Source of the DNA: a virus
Length of the DNA stretch: 64,000 nucleotides
IMG/VR virus record: IMGVR_UViG_3300010354_000067
Span: 1-64,000 of that record
Reading direction: 5' to 3' (one strand)
Shown in pieces: positions 7,867 to 50,022 of the stretch (positions are counted from its first letter, which is position 1; each line of letters opens with the position of its first letter). The translations under genes and the position numbers were made by a program. A model generated the notes under the pieces. It saw only the letters and a list, made by a program, of their open reading frames with translations. It ran no database searches and was not told the DNA's origin.

Positions 7867-9147
7867 ATGGATATTTGTAAGGCGCACTGGGTGTCTGATG
7901 GGAACAATCTCCGTCTTTCAATGCCAATAGCCAAAGTAGACAAAGAGCGAAGAATGGTTTCAGGATTCGCTACTCTTGATAATATTGATCGTCAGGGAGA
8001 CATTGTTCCATCTGATGCTAGTGTTAAGGCTTTCGAAAAATTCCGTGGCAACATTAGAGAAATGCACGATGAGAAGAAGGCCGTAGGAAAACTCGTATCA
8101 TTTAAGGAAGATTCTTTCTTTGATCAGGAATCAGGAAAGATCTACAAGGGTGTTTTTGTATCTGCTTATGTAAGCAAGGGCGCTCAGGATACATGGGAAA
8201 AGGTTCTTGATGGAACACTTACAGGCTTTTCAATCGGTGGCAGCGTAAAAGATTATGAAGATACATATGATGAAAAAATGGATAAGTCAATTAGAATTAT
8301 TAAAGAATATGATCTTTTTGAACTATCACTAGTTGATAATCCTGCCAACCAATACGCAAATGTCATTAGCATTGAAAAGGGTCATACTGGAGGGTATCTT
8401 TCTAAGGCTCTCATTGAGAACGTATTTTGGTGCAGTGAGGACGATATCGTTCAACTATCTGCTGGTAGCACATCAGACTGCCCACGATGCGACAAGGGTA
8501 TGAATAACATTGGTTTCGTAGAAACTAGTGACGCAGAAAAGGCAGAGGTAGTAAAGTCTCTTCTTTCTACTATTAAAAATGATGTAAAGGAGGTAAGCAA
8601 GATGAACGAAGAAACAATTGAGACAGCCTCCACAGAAGAAGCAGCAGAAACTGTTGTAGAAGAAACTGTAGAAAAGGCTGTTGAATCAGAAGTAGAAAAG
8701 TCTGATGTTGATGTTGAAAAGGCCGTAGTCGAAGAAGAAACAGTTCCTGAGGCTGGTACGGCAGATGAGACAGAAGCAGAATCCATGGACGAAGAGGACG
8801 ACATGGAGGATAAGGCAATGAGTGCTGGCGGCAAGGGTTATGATGATGAACTCAAGCCAACAAAGGCTCTTGCCGATGAGATGAATTCTGCTTTCAACGC
8901 TCTTGCTGACACCATTAAGGCTCTTAATGAGAAGATTGAAGAACTCAACAAGACTGTTACAGGTGTTAAGCAGGAAGTTGATACAGTAAAGAATGAGTTT
9001 GGAAAGCGCGTAGATGCTGTGGAAAAGGATACCGCTTTCCGTAAGTCTGGCGATCTTGGCGAGGTCGTGCAGGAGCCAATTTTCGAAAAGGCTCAAAAAT
9101 CACTATGGGGCGGTCGTTTCCTCACAAAGTCCGACCTATTTGCATAA
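7867..9147 (+). CDS. HK97-type prohead protease fused to an acidic coiled-coil scaffold
   Basis: REMH, GFSIGG and ELSLVD.PAN catalytic motifs; E/D-rich linker and heptad region; start may instead be 7858. Confidence 0.9.
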   Translation: MDICKAHWVSDGNNLRLSMPIAKVDKERRMVSGFATLDNIDRQGDIVPSDASVKAFEKFRGNIREMHDEKKAVGKLVSFKEDSFFDQESGKIYKGVFVSAYVSKGAQDTWEKVLDGTLTGFSIGGSVKDYEDTYDEKMDKSIRIIKEYDLFELSLVDNPANQYANVISIEKGHTGGYLSKALIENVFWCSEDDIVQLSAGSTSDCPRCDKGMNNIGFVETSDAEKAEVVKSLLSTIKNDVKEVSKMNEETIETASTEEAAETVVEETVEKAVESEVEKSDVDVEKAVVEEETVPEAGTADETEAESMDEEDDMEDKAMSAGGKGYDDELKPTKALADEMNSAFNALADTIKALNEKIEELNKTVTGVKQEVDTVKNEFGKRVDAVEKDTAFRKSGDLGEVVQEPIFEKAQKSLWGGRFLTKSDLFA

Positions 9148-15001: not shown

Positions 15002-18000
15002 TTGGCTGATAATGTAAATGCAAATATTAGAGTTGATTTAGACACCTCTGATGCGCTTGCGTCCCTAAGAAATCTTCAAAATCAAATATCTTTATTTAAT
15101 AAATCTGTTATACAAAGCAATGCTACAGCCGTGGCAGCGCAAAAGAGTATGCTGTCTACGCTTTCTGCCCAAATTGATTCAACAAGACAATTTACCGCAT
15201 CAATGGTAAATGTTGAAACTAGTGTTTCAAGACTTGGTAGGACAATTGATAAAAATAAACTATCTCTTGGTGAATATTTTAGATATGGTGTGGCCTCAAG
15301 TAAAAGTTTTGGCAGGGTGTTTGGAAGAGAACACACTGCAATTATGGAACTTGCAGCAGATAGAGTAAAAAGACTACAAACCCAGTACGTTGCTATGGGT
15401 CAAGCACAAAATGGTGTAATGAAGGCAATGGCTATTAGGCCAATGAACTTGTTCAATGCAGATGCCGCAGTAGCCATACAAAGACAACAAATTTTTAACA
15501 AACTTCTTCATGATGGAAGCACAAGCCTTATCAACTTTGGTAAAAATACTCAGTGGGCTGGCCGACAACTTATGGTCGGCTTTACTGTACCCTTGACAAT
15601 TTTTGGAGGAATGGCTGGAAAAATTTTCATGGATCTGGAAAGGCAAATTGTAAACTTCCGTAGGGTTTATGGAGATGCTACTACACCTCTAGAAGAAACA
15701 AATGGAATGATTTTGCAAATTCAAGAACTTGCAAAAGAATTTACAAAATATGGTATTGCTGTAAGGGATACCATTGCTCTTGCTTCAGACGCTGCTGCCG
15801 CTGGCGCACAAGGAAAAGATCTTCTTGCTGCAACGGCTGAGGCAACCAGGTTGTCTACACTGGGCATGATTGATCAGCAACAAGCGCTTACAGCAACCAT
15901 TGCTCTTCAGTCAGCATTTGGACTAAGTGCTGAAAAACTTGCTGAATCAGTAAACTTCTTGAACGCAGTAGAAAACCAAACGGTTGTGTCTCTTGCAGAT
16001 ATTACTGAGGCAATTCCTAAAGTTGCTCCAGTTATCAAGGGCTTGGGCGGAGATGTTGAAGACCTTGCAGTATTCATGGCAGCACTTAGAGAGGGTGGTG
16101 TAACGGCGGCAGAAGGAGCAAACGCACTAAAGTCTGGTTTAGCATCACTTATTAATCCAACAAAGAATGCAAGGGAGCAACTTGCAAAAGTAGGAATTAA
16201 TATTGATGCAATACTAAAGACTAATAAGGGTGATATACAAGGAACAGTAAGAGCATTTGGGGATGCATTAATGACCCTTGGTAAATTTGAGCGTCAGCAA
16301 ACATTGGCTAAAGTTTTTGGAAAATATCAGTTTGCTAGACTTGGTGCATTATTTGAAAATATTTCTAGAGATGCATCACAGGCACAAAGAGTAGTAGATC
16401 TTACAGGAATGAGTGTCGAAGAACTAGGAAATCTTGCAGAGAAAGAACTCGGTGCTATTGAAGAATCCATTGGGGTTAAGTTTACGGGTGCTGTAGAAAG
16501 ACTTAAACTTGCAATTGCTCCAATAGGAGAAGCGTTTTTAAGAGTTGCTACGCCAATAATTGAATTTGCTACAAAGTTAGCAGAAAAATTTAATGAACTT
16601 GGTCCAAATGTTAAAAATTTTGTCGTTGTTCTTGCTGCTGGTCTAGGAGTTGTAGTTCCAACAATAATCATGCTTATAGGTTTGTTTGCTAACTTTGCAG
16701 GAAATGCTGTAAAGGGTTTGTCATTAATGAATAACTTCTTTAATAGATTAAAGGGGGGCGCTGGAACTCTTGATTATTTAAGTGGCGAACAACTTGATGC
16801 CGCTGCTGCTGCTGCTTCACTAGAGGGCCAAACATCATCCCTTACTGGGGCGCTTAACGTACAAAGAAACGCCGTAGACCAACTTGCTAAATCATATGGA
16901 AGATATATTACTGCTGCTCAAGCAGCCGCATCCAATTTACCTCAAGGATTTCGTGGACCAGCAAAAAGAATGGCATCTGGGGGATTAGTTAGTGGATCAG
17001 GAAACAAAGATACTGAGCCAGCCTTGTTAACACCTGGGGAATTTGTTATGAACCGTGGTGCCACAGAAAAATTTGGCCCAATTCTTGATGCAATGAATCG
17101 TGGAACAGTTAAGGGACTTCAAGAAGGAAGCAGATCTTCAAAGCAATCTGGTGCCGCATCTAGACAATTTAAGTCGGGTGCTTTTGTACTCAGAGGACTT
17201 GGAGCAAATATTGGGGCAGGCGGTGCTGGATCAGGAATTCTATCAGATATCCTTGGAGTTAGTGCTAGAAGCATTGCTGATGTAACATCGCTATTTGTTT
17301 CAGAAATTTCTCAATCTGCTGGAGTAACAGTAAGTGCAATAAACAAGGAAATTAAGGCTTGGCAACAGCAAAATAGATCATATCTTGAGCAATTAAATAG
17401 ACAACTTGCAGATGCAATCATCAATAATGATGTAAAAGAGCAACAGAGATTGCTTGACGAAGCAAATTCAAAATTTGTTGCAGACATGAAGAGGTCTAGT
17501 GGACCACTTTCTAAATTTGCAACCGAAGCAGAAAGAAGATATCCAGAGTTAAGTGCTGATCTAGAAAATACTCAAAGAATTATTAGAAGCACTAAACTAA
17601 ACTTGTCTGATGCAAATCAATCTGCACAGTTTTTTGAAGAAAATATGAAAAAAACTGCTCTTCTTTCAAAACTAGGAAAACCAGGAACATATCAACCACA
17701 AGCAAGAGTTGCATCTGGAGCATTGCCATTTTTTGGTTCAGGCATAGGAATGGGTATTCCAGCACAACTTATTGATCCTAGAGTTAGGGCAACAGCAGGA
17801 AGAGAAACTTCCATGGGCCTATCTGCTGCACAATCTGCTGCACTTTATAGAGCAGGAACATCTGCTGAGCATGTTATGAAAACTCCTCAACAAGTAGCAA
17901 AAGAGGCAAGAACGCTAGCCGTTGTTGCTTCAAAATCAGCAGGAGGCACAATAATAAAAGAAATGCAAAAGGCTTCTGTTCGTGCAGGAAGCGTAATTGG

Positions 18001-39904: not shown

Positions 39905-40911
39905 GCAATGTCGAAGAGGTTCTTGCTAATCTTAATCCAAAGTTACGACAAAAGATTGGACTTGGCTCTGAGGTAGAACAGATTCAGTTTGCTAGTACAC
40001 CTAGTTTTGGACTAAACCGTGCTCTTAATGGCGGTCTTCCCTATGGTCGTCAGGTATTGGTTTGGGGCAATAAGTCAAGTGGTAAGTCATCATTCCTCTT
40101 GCAAACAGTTGCAGAGGCTCAAAAGGAGGGCAAGGTATGTGCTTGGATCGATGCAGAAATGACGTTCTCCCCAGAGTGGGCGGCACAGTTAGGCGTAGAC
40201 ACAAGCAGCCTTATTGTTTCTACCGCCCGTACAGTCAACGATATGGTGGATGTTGGTACGGATCTTATGCAGGCGGGTGCTGACATTATTGTTGTAGATT
40301 CTATCTCAGCCTTGCTGCCAGCAATTTACTTTGAGAAGGACAGCACAGACCTGAAGCAACTAGAAAATACAAAGCAGATTGGTGCAGAGGCTAGAGATAT
40401 GACCAATGCTGTCAAGATGCTCAACTATGCTAATAACCAAGACAAGCCAACACTACTTATTCTTATTAGTCAGGCTCGTAATAATATTGGAGCAATGTAT
40501 GCAACTCAGCAGCCCACAGGCGGCATGGCAGTTAAGTTCTATTCGTCTACTATCATCAAGTTGTTCTCTTCTGAGTCTGACAATCAGGCTATCAAGGGGA
40601 AGATCTATGTTGGTGATAAGATCATTGAAGAGAAGGTTGGAAGAAAGGTTCGTTGGGAAGTTCAGTTTTCAAAGACGAGTCCAGCATTCCAGTCAGGGGA
40701 GTATGACTTTTATTTCCGTGGAGCCGATTTGGGAGTTGACTCAATCGCAGACCTTGTTGATACGGCAGAAATGCTTGGAATTATTGAACGAGGTGGCGCA
40801 TGGTATACCTGTGAAGGAGAGAGATTCCAAGGAAGAGAGAAACTAGTTCTTGGGGTCAAGGAGAATCTTGATATGCAGGAATCACTTATTAAGAGGATAA
40901 AGAGTGTCTAG
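39901..40911 (+). CDS. recA: RecA/UvsX-like recombinase
   Basis: GGLPYGR, GNKSSGKS, WIDAE, VVDSI, GG.AVKFYSS and GAWY. Confidence 0.93.
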   Translation: MSNVEEVLANLNPKLRQKIGLGSEVEQIQFASTPSFGLNRALNGGLPYGRQVLVWGNKSSGKSSFLLQTVAEAQKEGKVCAWIDAEMTFSPEWAAQLGVDTSSLIVSTARTVNDMVDVGTDLMQAGADIIVVDSISALLPAIYFEKDSTDLKQLENTKQIGAEARDMTNAVKMLNYANNQDKPTLLILISQARNNIGAMYATQQPTGGMAVKFYSSTIIKLFSSESDNQAIKGKIYVGDKIIEEKVGRKVRWEVQFSKTSPAFQSGEYDFYFRGADLGVDSIADLVDTAEMLGIIERGGAWYTCEGERFQGREKLVLGVKENLDMQESLIKRIKSV

Positions 40912-41059
40912 GTATTCTAAATACTCTGGAAAGTTTTTCTGTCAAAGTTGTAAGGACGTTGTTGCTGAAGCAAGGTTCTACTCAAGTTCATATGAACTTA
41001 CATGGATGTGCAAGGACAAACATCTTTCTAAGGTAAATCTGTATGCGAGGGGATACTAG
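40904..41059 (+). CDS. small zinc-binding protein (51 aa, below track cutoff)
   Basis: GTG start after GAGGA; CQSC...WMCKDKH; fills the gap exactly. Confidence 0.7.
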   Translation: MSRYSKYSGKFFCQSCKDVVAEARFYSSSYELTWMCKDKHLSKVNLYARGY

Positions 41060-41358
41060 TGAGCGAGCGCGGCGAGGCCAAGAGAATCGGTGCAACTCAG
41101 CATAAAAACTCTGGAAGAGGAATGAAGAAGGGGGATGCAACATGGAAAAACTATGTTGTTGACTTCAAGGAATATTCAAAGAGTTTTAGTCTTAACCAAG
41201 ATGTGTGGGCAAAGGCAGTCACCGATTGCATGAAGGTAGATAAGAGTAAATCTCCAGCAATTATTGTTGTTCTTGGAGAAGGAAATCACAAGGTTCGCCT
41301 TGCCGTGATAGAATTAGATGAACTAGAAAGGCTAACAGAAAATGACAACAACTCTTGA
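41059..41358 (+). CDS. PD-(D/E)xK nuclease, Hjc-like resolvase
   Basis: E...SGRG..KGD....VVDFKE. Confidence 0.7.
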   Translation: MSERGEAKRIGATQHKNSGRGMKKGDATWKNYVVDFKEYSKSFSLNQDVWAKAVTDCMKVDKSKSPAIIVVLGEGNHKVRLAVIELDELERLTENDNNS

Positions 41359-41665
41359 GTTGGTAAATGAGGTAGCAGAGTTTACTGATATCTCAGAAAT
41401 AATGGAAGATGAAGAACTTACTAGCGCACTTGGACTTATTGTTAAGTTAATGATGAATCCAGATGTACCACCACAGAAGGCGGTAAATCTTATAGTGCAA
41501 CTTGAAGCATATGCAGCAAAGTTTGCAATGCTTGCATCGTATTATACAAATGTAAAGAAGGACAACAGGGCAAAGAAAAACCTTTATTTCTCTGCCAAGG
41601 AAGCCACACAGCGTTTGTGTGACAGCATGAAGTATGCAGCCAAGGCAGGAGGATATTATGGCTAA
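41342..41665 (+). CDS. hypothetical helical protein
   Basis: 107-aa ORF in the operon. Confidence 0.7.
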   Translation: MTTTLELVNEVAEFTDISEIMEDEELTSALGLIVKLMMNPDVPPQKAVNLIVQLEAYAAKFAMLASYYTNVKKDNRAKKNLYFSAKEATQRLCDSMKYAAKAGGYYG

Positions 41666-42425
41666 GAACTTTTTGAAGCAGGTTATGAATAAGCAGCCAG
41701 AGGGACCAATAGATACTAAGGCGCTTATTGAAAAAATAGAAGCAGGATATCTCGTTGGAAGAGATCCAAAGTTTACACAGAAGAAATCTTTTAGCCCATC
41801 AACACTTGTATATGGAAATGGTGCATGTCCACGATACTGGTTCCTAGCATTTACTGGAGCAGAGTTTGAAGATAATGCAGATGCCTACGCTGTAGCAAAT
41901 ATGGCAAGCGGTACAGATGGTCATGCTCGTATTCAAAAGGCTATAACAGACGCAGGAATTATGGTGGAGGAAGAGAAGAAGATTATCTCATCTGATCCTC
42001 CTATCTTTGGCTTTGCAGATGCAATTGTGCAATGGGAAGAAGAGCAGCCAGTTGTAGAGATTAAGACTATGAAGGAAGAGTCGTTTGCATATCGTAAGCA
42101 CGCTAAGCCACCTTCATACCATCTTATGCAGTTAATCATCTATATGAAGGTTCTTGGCAAGAAGTTGGGCATTCTTCTTTATGAGAATAAGAATACTCAT
42201 GAACTTCACGCAATTACTGTTGAACCAACAGATGAGTATAAGGCTTGGGCAGACTACGCATTTGACTGGATGAAGACTGTGAGAAAGTCTTGGGAGGATG
42301 GAATTCTTCCTCACAAGCCATATAGGTCTAATTCCAAGGTATGTAAGTCGTGTCCAATACAAAAGGCATGTGCAAACGCAGATAAGGGAAGCGCTAAGTT
42401 AACTCCCTTGGAGTACCTTGAATGA
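41658..42425 (+). CDS. Cas4-like PD-(D/E)xK exonuclease
   Basis: FSPS..ACPR, G.AD, VEIKT, QLIIY and CKSCPIQKAC (4-Cys Fe-S pattern); GGAGG SD. Confidence 0.85.
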   Translation: MAKNFLKQVMNKQPEGPIDTKALIEKIEAGYLVGRDPKFTQKKSFSPSTLVYGNGACPRYWFLAFTGAEFEDNADAYAVANMASGTDGHARIQKAITDAGIMVEEEKKIISSDPPIFGFADAIVQWEEEQPVVEIKTMKEESFAYRKHAKPPSYHLMQLIIYMKVLGKKLGILLYENKNTHELHAITVEPTDEYKAWADYAFDWMKTVRKSWEDGILPHKPYRSNSKVCKSCPIQKACANADKGSAKLTPLEYLE

Positions 42426-42715
42426 AAACTTGCGAATGGTGCTCTCAGGAGTTCCAACCAAGAGTAAGTTATCAAATTTACTGTTCTCCTGAATGCAGAG
42501 ATTCTGCAACTAAAGAAAAAATAGCAGAGCGCCATCAAATAAATAGAATTAAAAATCGTTCTAACAAAGAACGAAGATGTGCTGGTGGATGTGGAATTCT
42601 AATATCTGTTTATAACAATAATGGATTTTGTAACTCCTGCATGGTAAATAAAAGAAAAGTAGATAAGATGTTAAGAGAACTAAAAGGTCTTTTTGATTAT
42701 GAACAAGAAAATTAA
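42422..42715 (+). CDS. double zinc-finger protein
   Basis: CEWC..YCSPEC and CAGGC..FCNSC. Confidence 0.75.
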   Translation: MKTCEWCSQEFQPRVSYQIYCSPECRDSATKEKIAERHQINRIKNRSNKERRCAGGCGILISVYNNNGFCNSCMVNKRKVDKMLRELKGLFDYEQEN

Positions 42716-43280
42716 AACAGTAGGAAACAGTCTGCCACAATCATTTTGTGCAGTTGATGCAAGTACAAACAGCCTAGCCTTTGCGTTTTTTGTGGATGGG
42801 TCATTAGAAAAATATGGAAAAATAAGATTCTTTGGAAATGATATATACGAGAAACTTGGCGACACTTCACACAAAACAATGTCCTTTTTCAAAACACTGT
42901 CTACTGATAATATGATTATTGAAAAAACTATCTTTGCTAATAGCGCACAGGTAGCAGCAAACCTTGCACTTAGCCAAGGTGCTCTTATTGGCGGGGCAAA
43001 AATAGGTGGCGTTCGTAATGTCTATGGAGTAGCACCAATGTCGTGGCAATCATATGTAGGAACAAGATTGCTTACAACTGATGAGAAAAAGACTATACGA
43101 GATAGGAATCCAGGAAGATCTAATTCATGGTATAAGTCTCAGGAACGTGAACAGAGAAAGCAAAAAACCATTACTACTGTCAATGAAAAGTTTAATATAA
43201 AGTTATCAGATAATGATATTGCTGATGCGTGTGGTATTGGTATGTACGCTCTTGACAACTGGGAAAGGCTTATGGCATAA
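42693..43280 (+). CDS. RuvC-like Holliday junction resolvase
   Basis: AVDAST, IIEK and DNDIADA acidic tetrad. Confidence 0.75.
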   Translation: MIMNKKIKTVGNSLPQSFCAVDASTNSLAFAFFVDGSLEKYGKIRFFGNDIYEKLGDTSHKTMSFFKTLSTDNMIIEKTIFANSAQVAANLALSQGALIGGAKIGGVRNVYGVAPMSWQSYVGTRLLTTDEKKTIRDRNPGRSNSWYKSQEREQRKQKTITTVNEKFNIKLSDNDIADACGIGMYALDNWERLMA

Positions 43281-43429
43281 TGAGAAACAGCGGGTTGCAT
43301 TTGAGCGAGGCATTCTTAAAAAAAAGATATGTTCAGGAAAGAAAGTCTCCAGAAGATATTGCCAAAGAGTGTGGAGTCAGTGTACAATTGATCTATAGGC
43401 AACTAAAAAAGTTTGGATTAAAAAAATGA
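43280..43429 (+). CDS. small HTH protein (49 aa, below track cutoff)
   Basis: SPEDIAKECGVSVQLIYRQLKKFG; overlaps the flanking stop and start codons. Confidence 0.8.
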   Translation: MRNSGLHLSEAFLKKRYVQERKSPEDIAKECGVSVQLIYRQLKKFGLKK

Positions 43430-43641
43430 ATGATATGGTAAATCATCCAAAGCATTATACAAGTGATCCAAGTGGCGTTGAATGTATTCAAATTGTTCGA
43501 CATAGAAATTACAATATCGGAAACGCTATCAAGTACCTCTGGCGTGCTGGCCTTAAAAATGAAGACAAGCATATTGAAGATCTTAAGAAGGCAATCTTTT
43601 ATATTCAAGATGAAATCAAAAGAATTGAGGGAGGGTACTAA
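43426..43641 (+). CDS. DUF3310 (SaV-like) protein
   Basis: VNHPKHY...GNAIKYLWRAG.K...EDLKKA.FY. Confidence 0.9.
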   Translation: MNDMVNHPKHYTSDPSGVECIQIVRHRNYNIGNAIKYLWRAGLKNEDKHIEDLKKAIFYIQDEIKRIEGGY

Positions 43642-43934
43642 TGCCTCGTCGCAAAGCAATTGTTAGTCCAAATGCTCACCTTTATCATCGTGTTCCTTAT
43701 TTCACTATGCCTGATGGTAGGATTATTGAAAAAGATGAGATTATCAAGATACAGGGTGAGCATGGTGGAAAGTTCAAGTTCCTTGAGCATGTAACACGAA
43801 CTGATTCTGGAATTGATTGGATTGATTGTTTTGAGATCCGTGGTGGTGTTCTCTGTGGTTGGAGATCTTTTAGAGTGGAGAGAATCAAGCCTCTGCCAAA
43901 AACTAGAAGGAAGCGTAGGAAGAAGGTAGTGTAG
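43641..43934 (+). CDS. hypothetical SH3-like protein with basic tail
   Basis: GGAGG SD; IIKIQGEHG.KFKF...WIDC...RSF. Confidence 0.65.
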   Translation: MPRRKAIVSPNAHLYHRVPYFTMPDGRIIEKDEIIKIQGEHGGKFKFLEHVTRTDSGIDWIDCFEIRGGVLCGWRSFRVERIKPLPKTRRKRRKKVV

Positions 43935-43936
43935 CG

Positions 43937-44275
43937 TTGGCTCAGGACAACCTAAAAAGGTATGTTCAACCTTTACTATTCTCAGTAGAGAAGAATAGAA
44001 AGGAAAAGCCAGAACGACGCTCTGCCAAAGACAAGAAAAAAGTCCAAGAGATGCTTGGACAGATAAAAGAAAAAAATGGCTGCAATGATTGTGGTGGAAA
44101 ATATCCATCATATATTCTTGACTTTGACCACGTTTATGGCAAGAAGGTTGCAAATATCGGACAAATGCTAAATTATTTTTCTATTGATGATATCTTAAAG
44201 GAAGTAGCAAAATGTGAGATTGTTTGTTCCAACTGCCATAGAGAAAGAACACATCAAAGAAAAAATAATAAATGA
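43937..44275 (+). CDS. HNH endonuclease
   Basis: CNDC..LDFDHV...CEIVCSNCHRERT. Confidence 0.8.
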   Translation: MAQDNLKRYVQPLLFSVEKNRKEKPERRSAKDKKKVQEMLGQIKEKNGCNDCGGKYPSYILDFDHVYGKKVANIGQMLNYFSIDDILKEVAKCEIVCSNCHRERTHQRKNNK

Positions 44276-44324
44276 TTATGTGATTTATGGCACATAAAAA
44301 AACATCGATTTTTATCCATAACTA

Positions 44325-44333
44325 TGATATTCT
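44325..44333 (+). promoter_or_regulatory. putative extended -10 promoter for the transglycosylase
   Basis: TGATATTCT (TGn-TAnnnT); predicted start site near 44340. Confidence 0.5.
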
Positions 44334-44365
44334 GGATAAGTGTTGCCGCCGCAAGGAGGAAACAG

Positions 44366-44902
44366 ATGATAACGAAACTGCTAGGAGGTGTGTTAATAGT
44401 GACGGTATTGATGAGTGGATCGTCTAACGCCATTGCTAACACTTCCACCGAACAGGTGTATGCTAAGTCTGCACCGATTGCGACGGAGGCTTTTATGAAT
44501 AAGCCTGTCGTAAAAAATATACAGGCTTCATCAAAGCCAAAGGCCTGTAAAAACTGGCTCGTTAAGGAACTTAAGGAGGCAGGGTTTAAGGGCAAAGGAC
44601 TGCGAATCGCATGGGCAATTGCTATGCGTGAGAGTGGAGGAAGGGCTAACGCGATTTCCTCTACTGGAGACTATGGAGTCTTTCAGTTCAATCGCGCTGC
44701 ACATAGCGGTCAGCCTTGGTGGAATACCAAGAAGATGCTTGACCGTAATTACAACATCATGATTGCCTATCGCATTACGCAAGGAGGCAGGACGTTCTAC
44801 CCTTGGGACATTGATGGACGAGGAAATCACAAGGGAGCGTATACATCATCTGGTGTATACAACAAGTATAAGTCGTGGTATAACAAGTATCCATGCAAGT
44901 AG
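44366..44902 (+). CDS. secreted lytic transglycosylase/lysozyme-like protein
   Basis: Signal peptide MITKLLGGVLIVTVLMSGSSNAIA; AIAMRESGG catalytic Glu; DYGVFQFN; AAGGAGG SD. Confidence 0.85.
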   Translation: MITKLLGGVLIVTVLMSGSSNAIANTSTEQVYAKSAPIATEAFMNKPVVKNIQASSKPKACKNWLVKELKEAGFKGKGLRIAWAIAMRESGGRANAISSTGDYGVFQFNRAAHSGQPWWNTKKMLDRNYNIMIAYRITQGGRTFYPWDIDGRGNHKGAYTSSGVYNKYKSWYNKYPCK

Positions 44903-44903
44903 T

Positions 44904-44962
44904 GTAGTGGCAGGGTAGGAAACCTATTTCAACAGGTGGCAACATTCCTACCCTGCTACTGC
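44904..44962 (+). terminator. 18-bp stem with a 23-nt structured loop
   Basis: GTAGTGGCAGGGTAGGAA / TTCCTACCCTGCTACTGC. Confidence 0.6.
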
Positions 44963-44968
44963 TATAAT
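44960..44968 (+). promoter_or_regulatory. extended -10 promoter for the terminase operon
   Basis: TGCTATAAT, then AAAGGAG and ATG 44990. Confidence 0.7.
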
Positions 44969-44989
44969 TGTTACCTCTAAAGGAGAATT

Positions 44990-45517
44990 ATGGACAGCAA
45001 AGATATCGTATTGCATATCGAAGAGGTAAACAAGGTAGCAGCAGAATATATCAAGGGCAAGGATGCCTCTGCTATCTCTAAAGAACTTGACATTCCTCGT
45101 AATCGTGTTCTTAATCTTTTGAATGAATGGCGCGAGATGATTGCCAACAATGAGGCAGTCAGAATCAGAGCGCGAGAAGCCCTCGCTGGCGCTGACCAGC
45201 ACTATAATCATCTTATTCGTCAAGCATATGAAGTAATTGAAGATGCGAACACCATGTCTAATCTCACTGCCAAGACCACTGCAATTAAACTGATCATGGA
45301 TATTGAGGGTAAGCGAATTGACATGCTTCAAAAGGCTGGCCTTCTAGAGAATAAGGAACTCGCAGATCAACTCTTGGAAGCAGAAAGAAAGCAGGAAATT
45401 CTTATAAAGATTCTTAAAGAGGTGTCTGGAGAATGTCCAAGGTGCAGAAATGAAGTGGCAAGAAGACTTGCTCAGGCATCTGGACAAGAGGAAGTGATTA
45501 CGGTTGAGCATACTTAA
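44990..45517 (+). CDS. terminase small subunit (putative)
   Basis: N-terminal HTH, helical body, overlaps the large subunit start. Confidence 0.65.
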   Translation: MDSKDIVLHIEEVNKVAAEYIKGKDASAISKELDIPRNRVLNLLNEWREMIANNEAVRIRAREALAGADQHYNHLIRQAYEVIEDANTMSNLTAKTTAIKLIMDIEGKRIDMLQKAGLLENKELADQLLEAERKQEILIKILKEVSGECPRCRNEVARRLAQASGQEEVITVEHT

Positions 45518-47291
45518 TTTTGATGACTTTATTGGTGCATTAGACGATGATCCTTTTGAAGAATATCCAGTAGACATTAGAACGTTTGTTCATGATGAAC
45601 ACTATCTAGGTCAGCCAGAACTATCAGACATTCAGTATGATGTAGTTGAGGCTGGTAGCCAGATATATCGTCTTGATGATCTTAAAAGATTTATGAGTGA
45701 TACAGATGCAAAAAGACATTATGAAAAATATACAAAGAACGAAGTAATTCTCCAGTGTGGAAAGGGTAGTGGAAAAGATTACGTTTCTACTGTTACTGTT
45801 GCCTACATTGTATATAAACTTCTTTGTCTCAAAGATCCAGCAAAATATTATGGAAAGCCATCTGGTGACGCAATCGATATTATCAATATTGCTATTAACG
45901 CTCAGCAGGCAAAGAATGTTTTCTTCAAGGGCTTTAAGTTGAAGATTGAAAGAAGCCCTTGGTTTGCAGGAAAGTATGATCCAAAGGTAGACAATATTGA
46001 ATTTGATAAGTCAGTAACAGTCTATTCAGGACACTCAGAAAGAGAAAGCCATGAGGGTCTAAACCTAATCGCTGCCGTCCTTGACGAGATCTCTGGCTTT
46101 GCTCAGGAATCTGCAAGTGGTAATGAGAATGCCAAGACAGGTGACGCTATCTACAAAGCCTTTCGTGCATCAGTAGACTCTCGCTTCCCTGATTTTGGAA
46201 AGGTTCTGCTTCTATCATTCCCAAGATACCAAGGTGACTTTATTTCAAAGAGATATGAAGACGTTGTTCTTGAAAAAGAAACAGTGCTAAGGCAGCATAA
46301 CTTTTTTATTAATCCAGAACTTGGGGACATTGATGGGAATCAATATTCTATTGAGTGGGAAGAGGATCATATTGTTTCCTATAGGGTTCCGAAGGTATAT
46401 GCAATTAAAAGACCAACATGGGACGTAAATCCAACAAGAAGTATCACTGACTTTGAGCAACTATTCGTTGCTGATTATGCAGATGCGATTATGCGTTTTG
46501 CTTGTATGCCAACATTCTCTAGCGATGCATTCTTTAAGCAAAGAGATAAACTAGAGCGTGCAATGAGTTTAAGAAATCCGCTAGATAATTTTAGAAGACT
46601 TGACTCATCGTTTGTTCCACAAGAGGACAAGATATATTTTGTCCATGCAGACCTTGCACAGAAGCATGACAAGTGTGCTGTGTCAATAGCACATGTAGAA
46701 AAGTGGGTAGAAATAAAATCCTTTAATGACTATCAGCAGATTGTTCCGTTTGTAGTTGTTGATGCAGTCGCTTGGTGGGAGCCACGCAAGGAGGGTCCAG
46801 TTGATCTTTCTGAGGTAAAGAATTGGATTATTCATCTTAGAAGGAATGGGTTTAACCTTGGCCTTGTAACCTTTGACCGTTGGCAATCTTTTGATATTCA
46901 GCAAGAACTTAAGGCGGTAGGTATCAAAACAGATACCTTGTCTGTAGCAAAGAAGCACTATGAAGATCTTGCTATGCTTATTTATGAAGAAAGAGTTGCT
47001 ATGCCACACATTGATCTACTCTTGGAAGAAATGAGCGAACTAAAAATTGTTTCTGATAAGAAGGTCGATCACCCAAGAAAAAAGTCAAAGGACTTGGCAG
47101 ACGCGGTATGTGGAGCAGTGTATGATGCAATTAGCCATACTCCACGAAATACCAATCAAGAAATTAGTATCCATTCATGGAAATCTCTTAACAAAGAGAA
47201 TATGAAAAAGGATGAAATAGCAAACCTTATTGAGCCTCCAAAGGCTTCAGAGGAAATAAAAGATTACCTAACAAACCTAGGAATGTTGTGA
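45504..47291 (+). CDS. terminase large subunit
   Basis: GKGSGKD Walker A, AVLDE Walker B, HADLA, FDRW and SKDLADA nuclease motifs. Confidence 0.93.
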   Translation: MSILNFDDFIGALDDDPFEEYPVDIRTFVHDEHYLGQPELSDIQYDVVEAGSQIYRLDDLKRFMSDTDAKRHYEKYTKNEVILQCGKGSGKDYVSTVTVAYIVYKLLCLKDPAKYYGKPSGDAIDIINIAINAQQAKNVFFKGFKLKIERSPWFAGKYDPKVDNIEFDKSVTVYSGHSERESHEGLNLIAAVLDEISGFAQESASGNENAKTGDAIYKAFRASVDSRFPDFGKVLLLSFPRYQGDFISKRYEDVVLEKETVLRQHNFFINPELGDIDGNQYSIEWEEDHIVSYRVPKVYAIKRPTWDVNPTRSITDFEQLFVADYADAIMRFACMPTFSSDAFFKQRDKLERAMSLRNPLDNFRRLDSSFVPQEDKIYFVHADLAQKHDKCAVSIAHVEKWVEIKSFNDYQQIVPFVVVDAVAWWEPRKEGPVDLSEVKNWIIHLRRNGFNLGLVTFDRWQSFDIQQELKAVGIKTDTLSVAKKHYEDLAMLIYEERVAMPHIDLLLEEMSELKIVSDKKVDHPRKKSKDLADAVCGAVYDAISHTPRNTNQEISIHSWKSLNKENMKKDEIANLIEPPKASEEIKDYLTNLGML

Positions 47292-47298
47292 GGAAACT

Positions 47299-47466
47299 AT
47301 GACATGGTTTTTAATTTGCTGCATTGCAGTTTTTATTCTATCTCTAGTAAGCAATGTATTGTTTTTGCTCAGCCCAATGAATAACCTAAAGGGTGGATCT
47401 ATCCTTGGAATTATTGTGTTTACAGCATTGACAGTATGGGCTATATCTCTTATAATTAGTGGGTAG
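47299..47466 (+). CDS. small two-TM membrane protein, possible holin (55 aa)
   Basis: GAGGA SD; MTWFLICCIAVFILSLVSNVLFLL...ILGIIVFTALTVWAISLIISG. Confidence 0.6.
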   Translation: MTWFLICCIAVFILSLVSNVLFLLSPMNNLKGGSILGIIVFTALTVWAISLIISG

Positions 47467-47472
47467 TGATTA

Positions 47473-47551
47473 CGGCAGGTAGGCAAATTGGTTACGCCGC
47501 CAGTCTTATAAACTGGGATTACGATTGTGGGTTCAAGCCCCACCCTGCCGA
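47473..47551 (+). tRNA. tRNA-Ile, anticodon UAU
   Basis: Acceptor CGGCAGG/CCTGCCG; anticodon arm CCAGT-CT TAT AA-ACTGG; T arm GTGGG-TTCAAGC-CCCAC; discriminator A. Confidence 0.85.
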
Positions 47552-47576
47552 CAAGCATACCTTTTAATTGTAAAGG

Positions 47577-47585
47577 TGGTATAAT
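47577..47585 (+). promoter_or_regulatory. extended -10 promoter, leaderless
   Basis: TGGTATAAT ends 7 nt before ATG 47593. Confidence 0.7.
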
Positions 47586-47592
47586 TTTTTCT

Positions 47593-47736
47593 ATGGACTT
47601 TAAAAAAATTATGTTTGAGCAAGATGAGGAAAAGGCAAAGCAGATTATTGCTGAAATAACTGAGACTGATCCTACAGATAATAGTGAAGACTATACAGTA
47701 GAAGACGAGTCTGAGATTGATTGGACAAACCTATAA
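47593..47736 (+). CDS. small acidic protein (47 aa)
   Basis: MDFKKIMFEQDEEKAK...; 16 of 47 residues D/E; TAATG coupling to the lysin. Confidence 0.7.
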   Translation: MDFKKIMFEQDEEKAKQIIAEITETDPTDNSEDYTVEDESEIDWTNL

Positions 47737-48455
47737 TGGCGAAACTATGTGCTGGTGGCGTAACACTAAGAGATCAAGTAAATAAGAGATGGCCCTCAAG
47801 AGATAAGGCCAGCGATGGTTGGATAGGCGATGCTGCTCACGCAGCACGAGAGGGATGGGGAACCAACGGCAAGGGGTCTTACCACAATCCAGATCCAAAT
47901 GGAATTGTTCACGCTATTGACTTGGACGAAGACTTTTTTGGTAAGGGTAAGGGTCAGGCAGAGGCAAAGAAGTTTGCTGAAGAGTTGGCAACCTATTGTC
48001 GTCAGGGCAAGGATGGTGGACGCATTGCCCATATTGTCTATGAAGATCAAGTAGCCTCTGGCACAGCCAACAACTGGCATTTTCGTGGTAGTGGGTACGG
48101 GCATACCCACCATATTCATATTAGTTTTACAAATAAGGCTGATCGTGATGGAAGCCCATTTAAACTTCCAATTTTTGAAACTGGAGATAAGCCAAAGCCT
48201 CCAGCGCCAAAGCCAGAGCAGGCTCCAGCATATCCAGGCAGATCTAAACTTCAGTTTAAGCAGAAGAACGCTGATGTAAGAGATTTACAGAAGCAGTTAG
48301 TTAAGAAGGGTTTTGAAATCCCCGCTGGTGCAACAGGATATTACGGAGATCAAACCGTAAGCGCAGTAAAGAAGTTTTATAAGTCTATTGGAAAGATTAA
48401 GGATGGAAAGTCAGTCGATCCTCAAGGATGGAACGCTCTGTGGGGTGCTAAGTAA
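47736..48455 (+). CDS. endolysin (M15-like Zn peptidase + peptidoglycan-binding domain)
   Basis: DGWIGD..H, SYHNPD, HAIDLD and HTHHIHISF; Pro linker; VRDLQKQL..G...GYYGDQT..AVKKF. Confidence 0.85.
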   Translation: MAKLCAGGVTLRDQVNKRWPSRDKASDGWIGDAAHAAREGWGTNGKGSYHNPDPNGIVHAIDLDEDFFGKGKGQAEAKKFAEELATYCRQGKDGGRIAHIVYEDQVASGTANNWHFRGSGYGHTHHIHISFTNKADRDGSPFKLPIFETGDKPKPPAPKPEQAPAYPGRSKLQFKQKNADVRDLQKQLVKKGFEIPAGATGYYGDQTVSAVKKFYKSIGKIKDGKSVDPQGWNALWGAK

Positions 48456-49279
48456 TGCCATATGACATTAAGGAAAATTACATGGATTGCAACGGCTATG
48501 CTGTTGTCGGTCCAGATGGGTCAATCAAGGGCTGCCATATAAGCAGGGAAAAGGCACAGGCACAGCAAGCGGCCTTATATTCAGTAGAGGAAAAGGTTGC
48601 AAAGGCTTATTCAATGCTTGATCCATCAGAAAAGGCCTTCCACGATGCCCTTGCTTCTGTAGCAGCAAAGTATGGAAAGTTTAGCAATGAAACTCCTGTC
48701 TATGCAGGGTATGAGCCTGCTGTAGAAAATGAAAACATTCTTAAGGGAATCGTTTGCGGGAATTGCTCATTCTGGCAGGGCGATGGCGTTTGTCAAATTG
48801 TTGCAGGAGAAATTGAATACAACGGTTATTGCCGTCTTGCAGCAATTCCATCAGAACTTGTTAATGCTGATGCCCCAGAGGTTGAAGTAGAGGAGGAAGA
48901 AATGGATAAGCAATATAATGGCTGTGGCTGCCCTACATGCAAGGAGATGAATGTTGCTTGCAAAGACTGCCCAGTTTGTAATTCAGAAATGGGAAAGGCA
49001 GACGGAGTTCGTGTAGGACAAATGGTTTCTTGGAATTCTAGCGGCGGCAGAGCAGAAGGAAGAGTCAAGAGAATTATAAGAGAGGGATCATACAATGTCC
49101 CAAACTCTGATTTTACAATTACTGGCACTCCAGATAATCCAGCGGTAGTCATTGAAGTATATCGTGATGGAAAGCCAAGCGGAAGAATGGTTGGTCATAG
49201 AATGGATACTCTTTCTGCAAAGAAGAGCGTATGGCTTGGAATGTTTGATCCTAGAGTTGGGCTGATGAAGCGTGGCTGA
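48455..49279 (+). CDS. multidomain protein (HiPIP-like Cys domain, Cys-rich knot, Hva1/DUF2945-like Tudor); candidate internal head protein
   Basis: CGNC...C...YC; CGCPTC..CKDCPVC; VGQMVSWNSSGGRAEGRV; C-terminal KSVWLGMF. Confidence 0.65.
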   Translation: MPYDIKENYMDCNGYAVVGPDGSIKGCHISREKAQAQQAALYSVEEKVAKAYSMLDPSEKAFHDALASVAAKYGKFSNETPVYAGYEPAVENENILKGIVCGNCSFWQGDGVCQIVAGEIEYNGYCRLAAIPSELVNADAPEVEVEEEEMDKQYNGCGCPTCKEMNVACKDCPVCNSEMGKADGVRVGQMVSWNSSGGRAEGRVKRIIREGSYNVPNSDFTITGTPDNPAVVIEVYRDGKPSGRMVGHRMDTLSAKKSVWLGMFDPRVGLMKRG

Positions 49280-49649
49280 TACCTATACTCCAACTGCTGG
49301 CATGAAGGCTGCTGCTAGGCGTGCCCTCAAATGGAAGGAAGAGGGTAAGGCAACTGGAGCAGGAACTCCTGTAGGCTGGGGAAGGGCAACAGACATTGTT
49401 GCGGGTAGAGCATTGTCCCTTGATACAGTAAAGCGTATGTATTCATTCTTCTCTCGTCATGAGGTTGATAAGAAGGGTAAAGATTTCTACAACACATCAA
49501 ATCCATCAAATGGTCGCATCATGTGGGACGCATGGGGTGGAGATGCAGGATTCTCTTGGTCAAGAAAGATTGTCCAAAGAGAGGATGCAAAGAAGTTGTG
49601 GAAAGGGTCAGCATTTGATGCAGATGTTGACAAAAGACAGCGCTCCTGA
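49272..49649 (+). CDS. conserved phage protein; candidate internal head protein
   Basis: AARRALKW..GT.VG..RA..LS.DTVKRMYSFFSRH..WDAWGGDAG; C-terminal KKLWKGSAF. Confidence 0.7.
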   Translation: MADTYTPTAGMKAAARRALKWKEEGKATGAGTPVGWGRATDIVAGRALSLDTVKRMYSFFSRHEVDKKGKDFYNTSNPSNGRIMWDAWGGDAGFSWSRKIVQREDAKKLWKGSAFDADVDKRQRS

Positions 49650-49655
49650 TAAAAT
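49627..49655 (+). promoter_or_regulatory. -35/-10 promoter
   Basis: TTGACA, 17 bp, TAAAAT with TGn extension. Confidence 0.75.
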
Positions 49656-49671
49656 TTATATAAAGGAGTTG

Positions 49672-50022
49672 ATGGGAATGATACCCTTCATCTTGTTTAC
49701 ATTTTCTCCATCATTTTCATATTTGTGGGGAGTAATGATAAACTTAATATATCTTGTAAGAACAGACAAAGTAGATAGAGCATTTGATACGATCATAAAA
49801 GACGTAGAAGAGCCAGAGGAAGATGAAGATATGGACGAGTTTATCAGCGTAGCGGTAATAGAGGATAGGGCGTATTGGGTAGTAGACAATACGTTTTATG
49901 TCGCAGAAATAGTAGACGGAGAAATTGATAAAACATCTTCTCGCCCTATCAATGCCTTTGAAATGTCTATAAAAGATATAAATAAAATGTTGTTCATATT
50001 GGATAATCTAGTAGAAGGATAG
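49672..50022 (+). CDS. membrane-anchored hypothetical protein
   Basis: AAAGGAG SD before ATG 49672; hydrophobic N-terminus. Confidence 0.65.
   Translation: MGMIPFILFTFSPSFSYLWGVMINLIYLVRTDKVDRAFDTIIKDVEEPEEDEDMDEFISVAVIEDRAYWVVDNTFYVAEIVDGEIDKTSSRPINAFEMSIKDINKMLFILDNLVEG

Follow-up and report, generated by a model that had tools for sequence, protein, structure and literature searches.

We analyzed the two ends of the predicted transcript of a gene for a lysozyme-like enzyme located in a 64,000-nucleotide (nt) stretch of viral DNA, positions 1 to 64,000 of IMG/VR record IMGVR_UViG_3300010354_000067 (hereafter, the window). The source record is linear, 74 kb long and estimated to be 69% complete; it carries ten tRNA genes, and its large terminase shares 54% identity with the large terminases of 133-kb Streptomyces phages (Coruscant, for example). 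The 178-amino-acid product of the gene includes a hydrophobic, signal-peptide-like N-terminus followed by an SLT_3/SLT lysozyme-like domain, with two Pfam matches above the curated cut-offs (PF18896, 45 bits for a cut-off of 27; PF01464, 25.2 bits for a cut-off of 21.3). A putative promoter precedes the gene, and a large hairpin begins 1 nt after its stop codon. The very 5′ end of the predicted transcript, located just upstream of the Shine-Dalgarno (SD) sequence, is complementary to a segment lying in the loop of that hairpin (Table 1), and the comparison of relatives indicates that this long-range RNA pairing is very probably real and under selection.

Table 1. Features of the enzyme gene and its flanks, in window coordinates (CDS, coding sequence; bp, base pairs).
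Feature	Position	Strand	Remarks
Cassette promoter	44305-44333	+	weak -35 TCGATT (44305-10), 17-nt spacer, extended -10 TGATATTCT (44325-33); read from the letters
Predicted transcription start	44339-44341	+	placed 6-8 nt past the -10 element
5′ pairing segment UGUUGCCGCC (TGTTGCCGCC)	44341-44350	+	core UUGCCGCC at 44343-50; only candidate anti-SD strand
Local hairpin CCGCC-GCAA-GGAGG	44346-44359	+	CCGCC 44346-50, GCAA 44351-54, SD GGAGG 44355-59; would occlude the SD
CDS	44366-44902	+	178 amino acids; ATG at 44366; stop TAG 44900-02
CDS-internal hairpin GGUGU(A)/(U)GCACC, loop UGCUAAGUC	44455-44475	+	RNAalifold, 44 sequences: two pairs with compensatory changes
3′ hairpin	44904-44962	+	18-bp stem (44904-44921 with 44945-44962, two G-U), 23-nt loop 44922-44944
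In-loop mini-stem ACCU (44922-25)/AGGU (44934-37)	44922-44937	+	would hold GGU and leave GGCAACA single-stranded as a toehold
3′ pairing segment GGUGGCAACA (GGTGGCAACA)	44935-44944	+	inside the 3′ hairpin loop, abuts the 3′ arm of the stem
Stretch GGUGGCAAC			part of the window 3′ loop motif, counterpart of the clade C form
Extended -10 TGCTATAAT of the next (late-type) transcription unit	44960-44968	+	overlaps the hairpin end; outside the pairing

When aligned antiparallel, the two segments form 10 consecutive pairs, one of them a G-U (G44348-U44937). A complementarity of exactly this extent had been claimed in an earlier note on this DNA, made from the sequence alone, and all its letters and coordinates were confirmed. 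Found in one genome, a match of this kind is only suggestive, the chance of it being about 0.002-0.03. On both strands of the 64 kb, seven other sites match or exceed the loop in binding to the 11-nt 5′ end, which puts the probability of finding a site of this quality in this loop by chance at about 0.002; complementarity of at least 10 bp between 5′ and 3′ flanks is present in 2-4 of the 105 open reading frames (ORFs) of the window. Two other window ORFs, 16327-16671 and 8686-9096, both on the minus strand, exhibit a complementarity of 11-12 bp between start flank and stop flank (the 40 nt before the start and the 80 nt after the stop), the pairs being GTTAGCAAACA/TGTTTGCTGAC and GTGAGGAAACGA/TTGTTTCTTCGT. 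It is the comparison of relatives that takes the complementarity at the enzyme gene beyond chance.

Relatives were gathered by protein-anchored scans of viral and metagenome contigs together with a scan for the leader pattern, and several hundred loci were obtained. In viral contigs, the leader-pattern scan yielded mostly chance hits, and it exposed a second cargo family, described below. Both segments are present in 96 metagenomic phage loci, with the same orientation in all of them, which correspond to 79 distinct units; where the contig was long enough, there were no cases of a leader without the loop motif. The 3′ motif GGTGGCAA is invariant in 58 of 58 A1 sequences, and the 5′ half of the loop and the stem vary freely. 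In the first 58 sequences, the changes in the 5′ core are all one-sided and preserve the pair (C-to-U opposite G, G-to-A opposite U), one pair being seen as G-C, G-U and A-U. As one-sided changes and wobbles of this kind pair only on the mRNA-sense strand, they point to pairing at the RNA level. When the 79 units were considered, 99.6% of the cells at positions 2-10 (the nine inner pairs) were paired, a value reached by none of 20000 shuffles. For a set of 22 representatives, 96.8% of the cells were paired and 4 of the 10 pairs had changed on both sides (G-C to A-U, U-A to C-G and two adjacent C-G to U-A). None of 500 shuffles of this set reaches the real alignment in percentage paired, in covariation score or in the count of cells with changes on both sides; four pairs changed on both sides are reached in 7 of the 500. 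Sliding the partner, used as a control, leaves 27-71% paired. The search for covariation between the two segments in the flanks of homologous genes, which the earlier note had proposed as a check, was therefore positive.

The variants that carry the covariation are distributed over several lineages. In clade C (7 distinct units, including L411, L413, L414, L479, L482 and L484), the 5′ segment UGUUGUUGCC occurs together with the 3′ segment GGUAACAACA, so that two adjacent C-G pairs have become U-A with the G-U retained; the wobble intermediate, CU/GG, is found in L487, L489-491 and L169. Locus L502 shows a U-A to C-G replacement, with 5′ UGCUGUCGCC and 3′ GGUGGCAGCA, and L028 a G-C to A-U replacement at a pair that is G-U in L088 and L099. 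The 3′ motif is altered, to GGUAACAACA or GGUGGCAGCA, precisely where the 5′ segment is altered. Before these variants turned up, the data could also be explained by two independent constraints, the 5′ segment being kept as an anti-SD or leader element and the loop for a protein or another RNA, with an incidental complementarity between them: the 3′ motif was invariant and the changes at the 5′ side were all compatible with the local hairpin. Four pairs changed on both sides, together with the replacement of the entire pair in clade B (see below) and the invariant UUG/CAA positions, which the local hairpin leaves unexplained, render this explanation highly unlikely.

Still less credible is a role of the segments at the DNA level, either as inverted repeats for an invertase or recombinase, as sites for a DNA-binding regulator, or as the -35 of the downstream late promoter. 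It is true that they form an inverted repeat around a cassette with exchanged cargo, and that the loop sequence TGGCAA resembles some -35 elements of the phage group; however, G-U and U-G pairs and the wobble intermediates pair only on the sense strand, and a single orientation is kept in all 96 loci. Two specific candidates of this kind were rejected. A dispersed operator motif is not apparent, TTGCCRCC occurring 3 times in 64 kb for 2.4 expected, two of the occurrences being the pairing sites themselves. As for the loop motif acting as the downstream -35, its distance to TATAAT is 16-21 nt and the motif persists without that promoter.

A further group of relatives, the sister clade B (L229, L318-L321), occupies the same genomic position, directly upstream of the same late gene, and has no sequence in common with the window in its flanks. 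The cargo there is of a lipoprotein type and related to the second cargo family. The 5′ segment of clade B, GUGUGCGGGAGUAC, is the perfect reverse complement of the 3′ segment GUACUCCCGCACAC along 14 nt, and this 14-nt pair is invariant in all members, the neighbouring bases being variable. The 5′ fragment alone is predicted to fold into an SD-sequestering hairpin with a GGGA tetraloop (-15.8 kcal/mol when folded from the likely start); including flanking bases, the value is -23.5 kcal/mol with z = -6.6. When the full-length RNA is folded without constraints, the minimum free energy (MFE) structure has a long-range helix of 17 bp, and most of the SD is unpaired. The predicted folds of clade B are thus exactly the 5′/3′ switch that had been proposed earlier for the window, written in other letters. 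In all three versions of the pair, the 5′ partner lies immediately upstream of the SD.

The earlier note had described an 18-bp stem right after the stop codon with the 3′ segment in its loop, and the structure held up well: its free energy is -35.3 kcal/mol (z = -5.4), and 0 of 200 shuffles are as good. The stem covaries in its own right, as in the upper two helices all pairs have changed on both sides (97% and 83.5% paired; 0 of 500 shuffles). Within the loop, the ACC/GGU mini-stem is predicted for clade C likewise. In the window, the tail UAUAAUUG has no clear U-tract, and the terminator scan made no call, the loop exceeding the length range of the scan. In L004, L028, L088, L103, L169 and L186, the hairpin is followed by a T-run and corresponds to a canonical intrinsic terminator.

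The long-range helix abuts the stem, and coaxial stacking of both helices could occur. On this basis, the pairing might be thought to act negatively: a stacked rod of about 28 bp, located 4 nt upstream of the SD, would hinder the 30S subunit or be a substrate for RNase III, limiting the amount of a dangerous enzyme, and icaR provides a precedent for such an effect (PMC3868564). We consider repression or processing of this kind quite improbable, since the loop complements the strand upstream of the SD, and not the SD or the start codon, and since the full-length fold predicted for clade B frees the SD. The high stability of the hairpin (-35 kcal/mol) is also compatible with an action in trans, a stable 3′-end fragment pairing with the leaders of other mRNA copies as feed-forward activator or as decoy; the earlier note had already raised this possibility, and covariation cannot separate cis from trans. 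Pairing in cis is nevertheless kinetically favoured, there is no second target of the motif in the 64-kb window, and no RNA contig corresponding to the hairpin alone was found, contigs being a poor means of showing small RNAs. Action in trans therefore appears very improbable.

With respect to the 5′ end, a transcript starting near 44340, as the earlier note predicted, agrees with what is conserved in the relatives. A TTGACA-17-TAnnCT promoter is present at the same place, being clear in most of them, and of 72 distinct promoter-leader combinations, 44 have the first pair of the long-range helix 7-8 nt past the -10 hexamer, where the 5′ end of the RNA is expected. The window promoter has a weak -35 and was not called by the consensus scan. 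Contigs identical to the window were found in RNA libraries from two aquatic metatranscriptome runs of different studies, extending from 44355/44358 to 44919/44923; the contigs of the two runs end only a few nt apart and have no loose ends. In a relative, an RNA-library contig (X10) covers the entire 5′ segment and reaches 11 nt further upstream. As RNA ends cannot be read from contigs, these data hint only weakly, if at all, at a discrete transcript. In four RNA-library runs analyzed for positions 43600-45700, the HNH endonuclease gene upstream and the genes downstream had no contig cover; as contigs cannot prove absence, this was not used as evidence.

How might the pairing act? The 5′ strand would be the only sequence able to cover the SD GGAGG located four nt downstream, by means of the CCGCC-loop-GGAGG hairpin, and since no other candidate anti-SD strand exists, the ribosome site is most likely released when the 3′ loop pairs with this strand. 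In the nascent transcript, the local hairpin would form first and partly hide that site. Once the 3′ hairpin has been made, its loop would capture the 5′ strand, the single-stranded GGCAACA serving as toehold, and both the ACC/GGU mini-stem and the SD would be displaced. The product would be a pseudoknot in which the first 9-13 nt of the mRNA (UGUUGCCGCC) are paired with GGUGGCAACA in the loop, so that the mRNA is closed into a loop; the 10-bp helix may stack on the 18-bp stem, the SD would be free and the 5′ end buried. Translation would in this way depend on the transcript being complete and intact, and both ends of the completed mRNA would be shielded. The mean energies, -18.0 kcal/mol for the 5′-3′ duplex vs -6.7 kcal/mol for the local hairpin, make the exchange plausible even after a pseudoknot penalty, which we estimated and did not compute. 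We infer pairing in cis in the cell, activation rather than repression, and stabilisation of the mRNA. To the model as a whole, that is, completion-gated activation of translation with end protection, we give roughly even credence.

A broader proposal, on balance somewhat doubtful, takes the loop of the terminator as a built-in "transcript finished" signal and the two segments as a portable 5′/3′ control pair carried by a phage moron. A Sec-secreted wall hydrolase would be kept untranslated during transcription, which would avoid truncated products and the tethering of phage DNA to the membrane; upon release, the mRNA would adopt a closed-loop, end-protected and translatable form. Such a pair would accept unrelated cargo, and would have been reinvented in the sister clade.

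Several results weigh against gated activation, most of them concerning the local hairpin. The earlier note had predicted that CCGCC-GCAA-GGAGG hides the SD; its letters and positions are correct, and the hairpin is weak in the window (-7.7 kcal/mol, z = -1.4), its stability not significant, with 18 of 200 shuffles as good. In the relatives the arms of the hairpin are retained around a loop of variable sequence and of 3-6 nt, and no covariation of its own was detected, as expected for a hairpin whose 3′ arm is the SD. In clade C it is marginal (-4.5 to -5.2 kcal/mol, z about -0.5): the compensating changes there are in the 3′ loop, and the local hairpin is left with U-G pairs. From the changes in clade C, selection for the long-range helix is clear, and selection for occlusion of the SD is no more than possible. 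Sequestration of the SD by a leader hairpin, with an activator complementary to its upstream arm, is hence clear in clade B, weak in the window and marginal in clade C; strong hiding of the SD is predicted only in clade B. Other results bear on the pairing itself. Locus L486 (IMGVR_UViG_3300013010_002739) combines a 5′ leader of the L489 type, UGUUGCUGCC, with the 3′ hairpin of clade C, GGUAACAACA, leaving one C-A mismatch in the middle of the helix; it looks like a natural recombinant. Outside the core, pairing shows no significant covariation (own pairings, 2.23 bp; cross-pairings, 2.07 bp; p = 0.14). Finally, the folding programs used here cannot score the pseudoknot, and the full-length MFE structure of the window, which keeps the local hairpin, is uninformative on the pairing.

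The window and most relatives also have a second copy of GGAGG, located 18 nt inside the CDS (44384-44388, codons Leu-Gly-Gly). The 5′ CCGCC might pair with this copy instead, or the codons alone may account for its conservation.

Taking these results into account, the alternative that deserves most attention is that the pairing serves stability only. The helix would bury the 5′ end against RNases that depend on it (RNase J, RNase E) or, as in hbs, against an endonuclease cutting in the leader. It would also help the 3′ hairpin to resist exonucleases, and an influence on the SD would be incidental. The helix begins at the predicted 5′ end; the compensations in clade C save the long-range helix as the local SD hairpin decays to wobbles, and that hairpin is weak in the window; contigs covering nearly the full length of the gene occur in two RNA libraries; and there is a precedent in the 14-bp 5′/3′-UTR (untranslated region) pairing of Bacillus subtilis hbs, which acts against RNase Y (PMC5737220). 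Clade B is difficult to reconcile with this alternative, because its strong SD hairpin already starts 2-4 nt from the predicted 5′ end, so that the 3′ element is not needed for end protection, and the 14-nt complement is conserved anyway. The position of the 5′ partner, next to the SD in every version, is not accounted for either. We regard stability as the sole function as rather unlikely.

The pairing belongs to a moron-like cassette whose cargo is one of two unrelated lysozyme-like proteins. Promoter, leader, signal peptide, the first ~12 residues of the mature protein and the 3′ hairpin are the same in both, and the mature domain that they enclose is of two unrelated kinds: in L055, L067, L103, L131, L157, L411 and other loci, the SLT_3 domain is replaced by one carrying ...RESRF.Y...GAYQF.... 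No Pfam match was obtained for this second cargo family; the only lead, from a language-model atlas, is to the Transglycosylase-like (Rpf-like) family PF06737, present in Actinomycetota and phages. Searches of PDB sequences with both cargo families gave nothing useful. The loop motif persists after the exchange of cargo, and also after a downstream switch to a T-run terminator and a convergent gene.

Upstream of the cassette, an HNH endonuclease gene ends at 44275; downstream lie the phrog_9507 gene (44990-45517) and then the large terminase gene. In Coruscant, the flanking modules have the same order and the enzyme gene is absent, and in more distant syntenic contigs a different gene runs directly into the late gene. 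As both lack the enzyme gene at that position, and as it has a sigma-70-type promoter and a hairpin of its own, the gene is, judged by its sequence context, a moron-like insertion with its own expression signals. A protein search of cultured phages gave no homologue of the enzyme, and a nucleotide search of cultured phages returned only distant matches to Streptomyces phages, in the downstream gene; the locus hence lacks a cultured representative. An Rfam search of positions 40000-50000 (E value <= 1) detected only the tRNA at 47473, and no match at the locus.

The extended -10 TGCTATAAT is kept directly after the 3′ arm of the hairpin, and overlapping it, in most relatives, and heads the unit beginning with the phrog_9507 gene; in other relatives, it is replaced by the T-run and convergent gene, with the loop motif retained. 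The phrog_9507 gene sits where a small terminase would be expected, and in Coruscant the corresponding gene has the annotation of a putative sigma factor.

Additional conserved elements were observed within the coding region. The compensatory changes in the CDS-internal hairpin come from L033 and from L103/L169/L175. The codons of the mature N-terminus (EQVYAKSAPIAT, 44450-44486) are almost invariant at the nucleotide level in both cargo families, including synonymous sites. A second conserved pairing inside the CDS (44478-44513) joins ...GCGACGG... with ...CTGTCGT..., and its CGAC/GUCG arms recur in both cargo families at very different spacing. In a distant clade with the second cargo (L341, L366, L386, L261, L282), the sequence CTTTCTTTT, located right after the stop codon, complements the purine-rich SD region of the same gene, AAAGGAAAG, over 9 bp with one G-U; this may be an icaR-like arrangement or a chance match of a purine tract with a pyrimidine tract.

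Self-regulation through base pairing between the 5′ and 3′ ends of one mRNA is reported for only a handful of natural bacterial mRNAs, namely hok, RNAIII/hld, icaR and hbs (reviewed in PMC7821165). At the phage locus, the mRNA has downstream of its stop codon a segment complementary to the leader, and this complementarity has been maintained in evolution, as in cis 5′-UTR/3′-UTR pairing. In icaR of Staphylococcus aureus, a 3′-UTR motif likewise pairs in cis with its own 5′ UTR and controls expression (PMC3868564; PMC7821165). The icaR motif, UCCCC, is an anti-SD sequence that covers the ribosome site, blocks translation and creates a site for RNase III (PMC3868564), whereas the phage loop GGUGGCAACA has no complementarity to the SD, pairs upstream of GGAGG and should expose the site. 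The phage partner, moreover, sits in the loop of a terminator-like hairpin and has strong phylogenetic support.

The earlier note had compared the locus to mRNAs of the hok type, known for the tac/fbi fold-back of hok/sok of plasmid R1. The topology is indeed alike: the very 5′ end pairs with the 3′ end and would choose between folds around the SD, and the product is in both cases dangerous to the cell envelope. The logic is not, since in hok the 5′-3′ stem holds the full-length mRNA closed and inert, and translation requires trimming of the 3′ end (PMC9841398), whereas the phage stem should open the ribosome site. The phage mRNA would have one inversion fewer, with the 3′ loop blocking the anti-SD and the anti-SD blocking the SD, and its full-length form should be active. 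Unlike hok, it is predicted to have no separate upstream box that sequesters the SD, the 5′ partner itself being the only candidate anti-SD, and it encodes a 178-amino-acid SLT_3 enzyme, with neither a small toxin ORF nor a mok-like leader ORF. Promoter-like sites on the minus strand occur at chance level, and there was no evidence of an antisense RNA, no dedicated antisense search having been made.

The hbs mRNA of B. subtilis resembles the phage mRNA in that its 14-bp pairing of 5′ and 3′ UTR modulates the access of an RNase to the leader, protecting it from cleavage by RNase Y (PMC5737220). The hbs 3′ UTR is not conserved among close relatives (PMC7821165), whereas the phage pair is conserved and covaries over ~80 sequences, and involves a hairpin loop.

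Pairing between the two UTRs in cis is therefore known as a kind; what differs here is that the very 5′ end pairs with the loop of a terminator-like hairpin, and that the predicted logic opens the ribosome site. The ~80 natural variants, including wobble intermediates, a mismatched recombinant and a sister clade with a different pair, constitute a ready-made set of disrupting and compensating mutations. If the broader proposal of a built-in completion signal is true, this would be the first natural activating pseudoknot between a 5′ end and a terminator loop in a bacterial or phage mRNA. Confirmation of the pairing and its logic would mean that phages couple translation or mRNA lifetime to completion of the transcript, and that control pairs travel with morons as a unit, whatever the cargo; 3′ hairpins with loops made to design would then be compact parts for stable or completion-gated mRNAs.

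In anti-antisense activation, exemplified by DsrA and RprA on rpoS and by RNAIII on hla, a small RNA (sRNA) pairs with the upstream arm of a leader hairpin that occludes the SD, and frees the ribosome site. Those sRNAs act in trans and under specific conditions, whereas the phage mRNA would carry its activator at its own 3′ end, the signal being completion of the transcript. By analogy, the logic proposed for the phage mRNA is most like activation by anti-antisense sRNAs, with the activator placed in the terminator loop.

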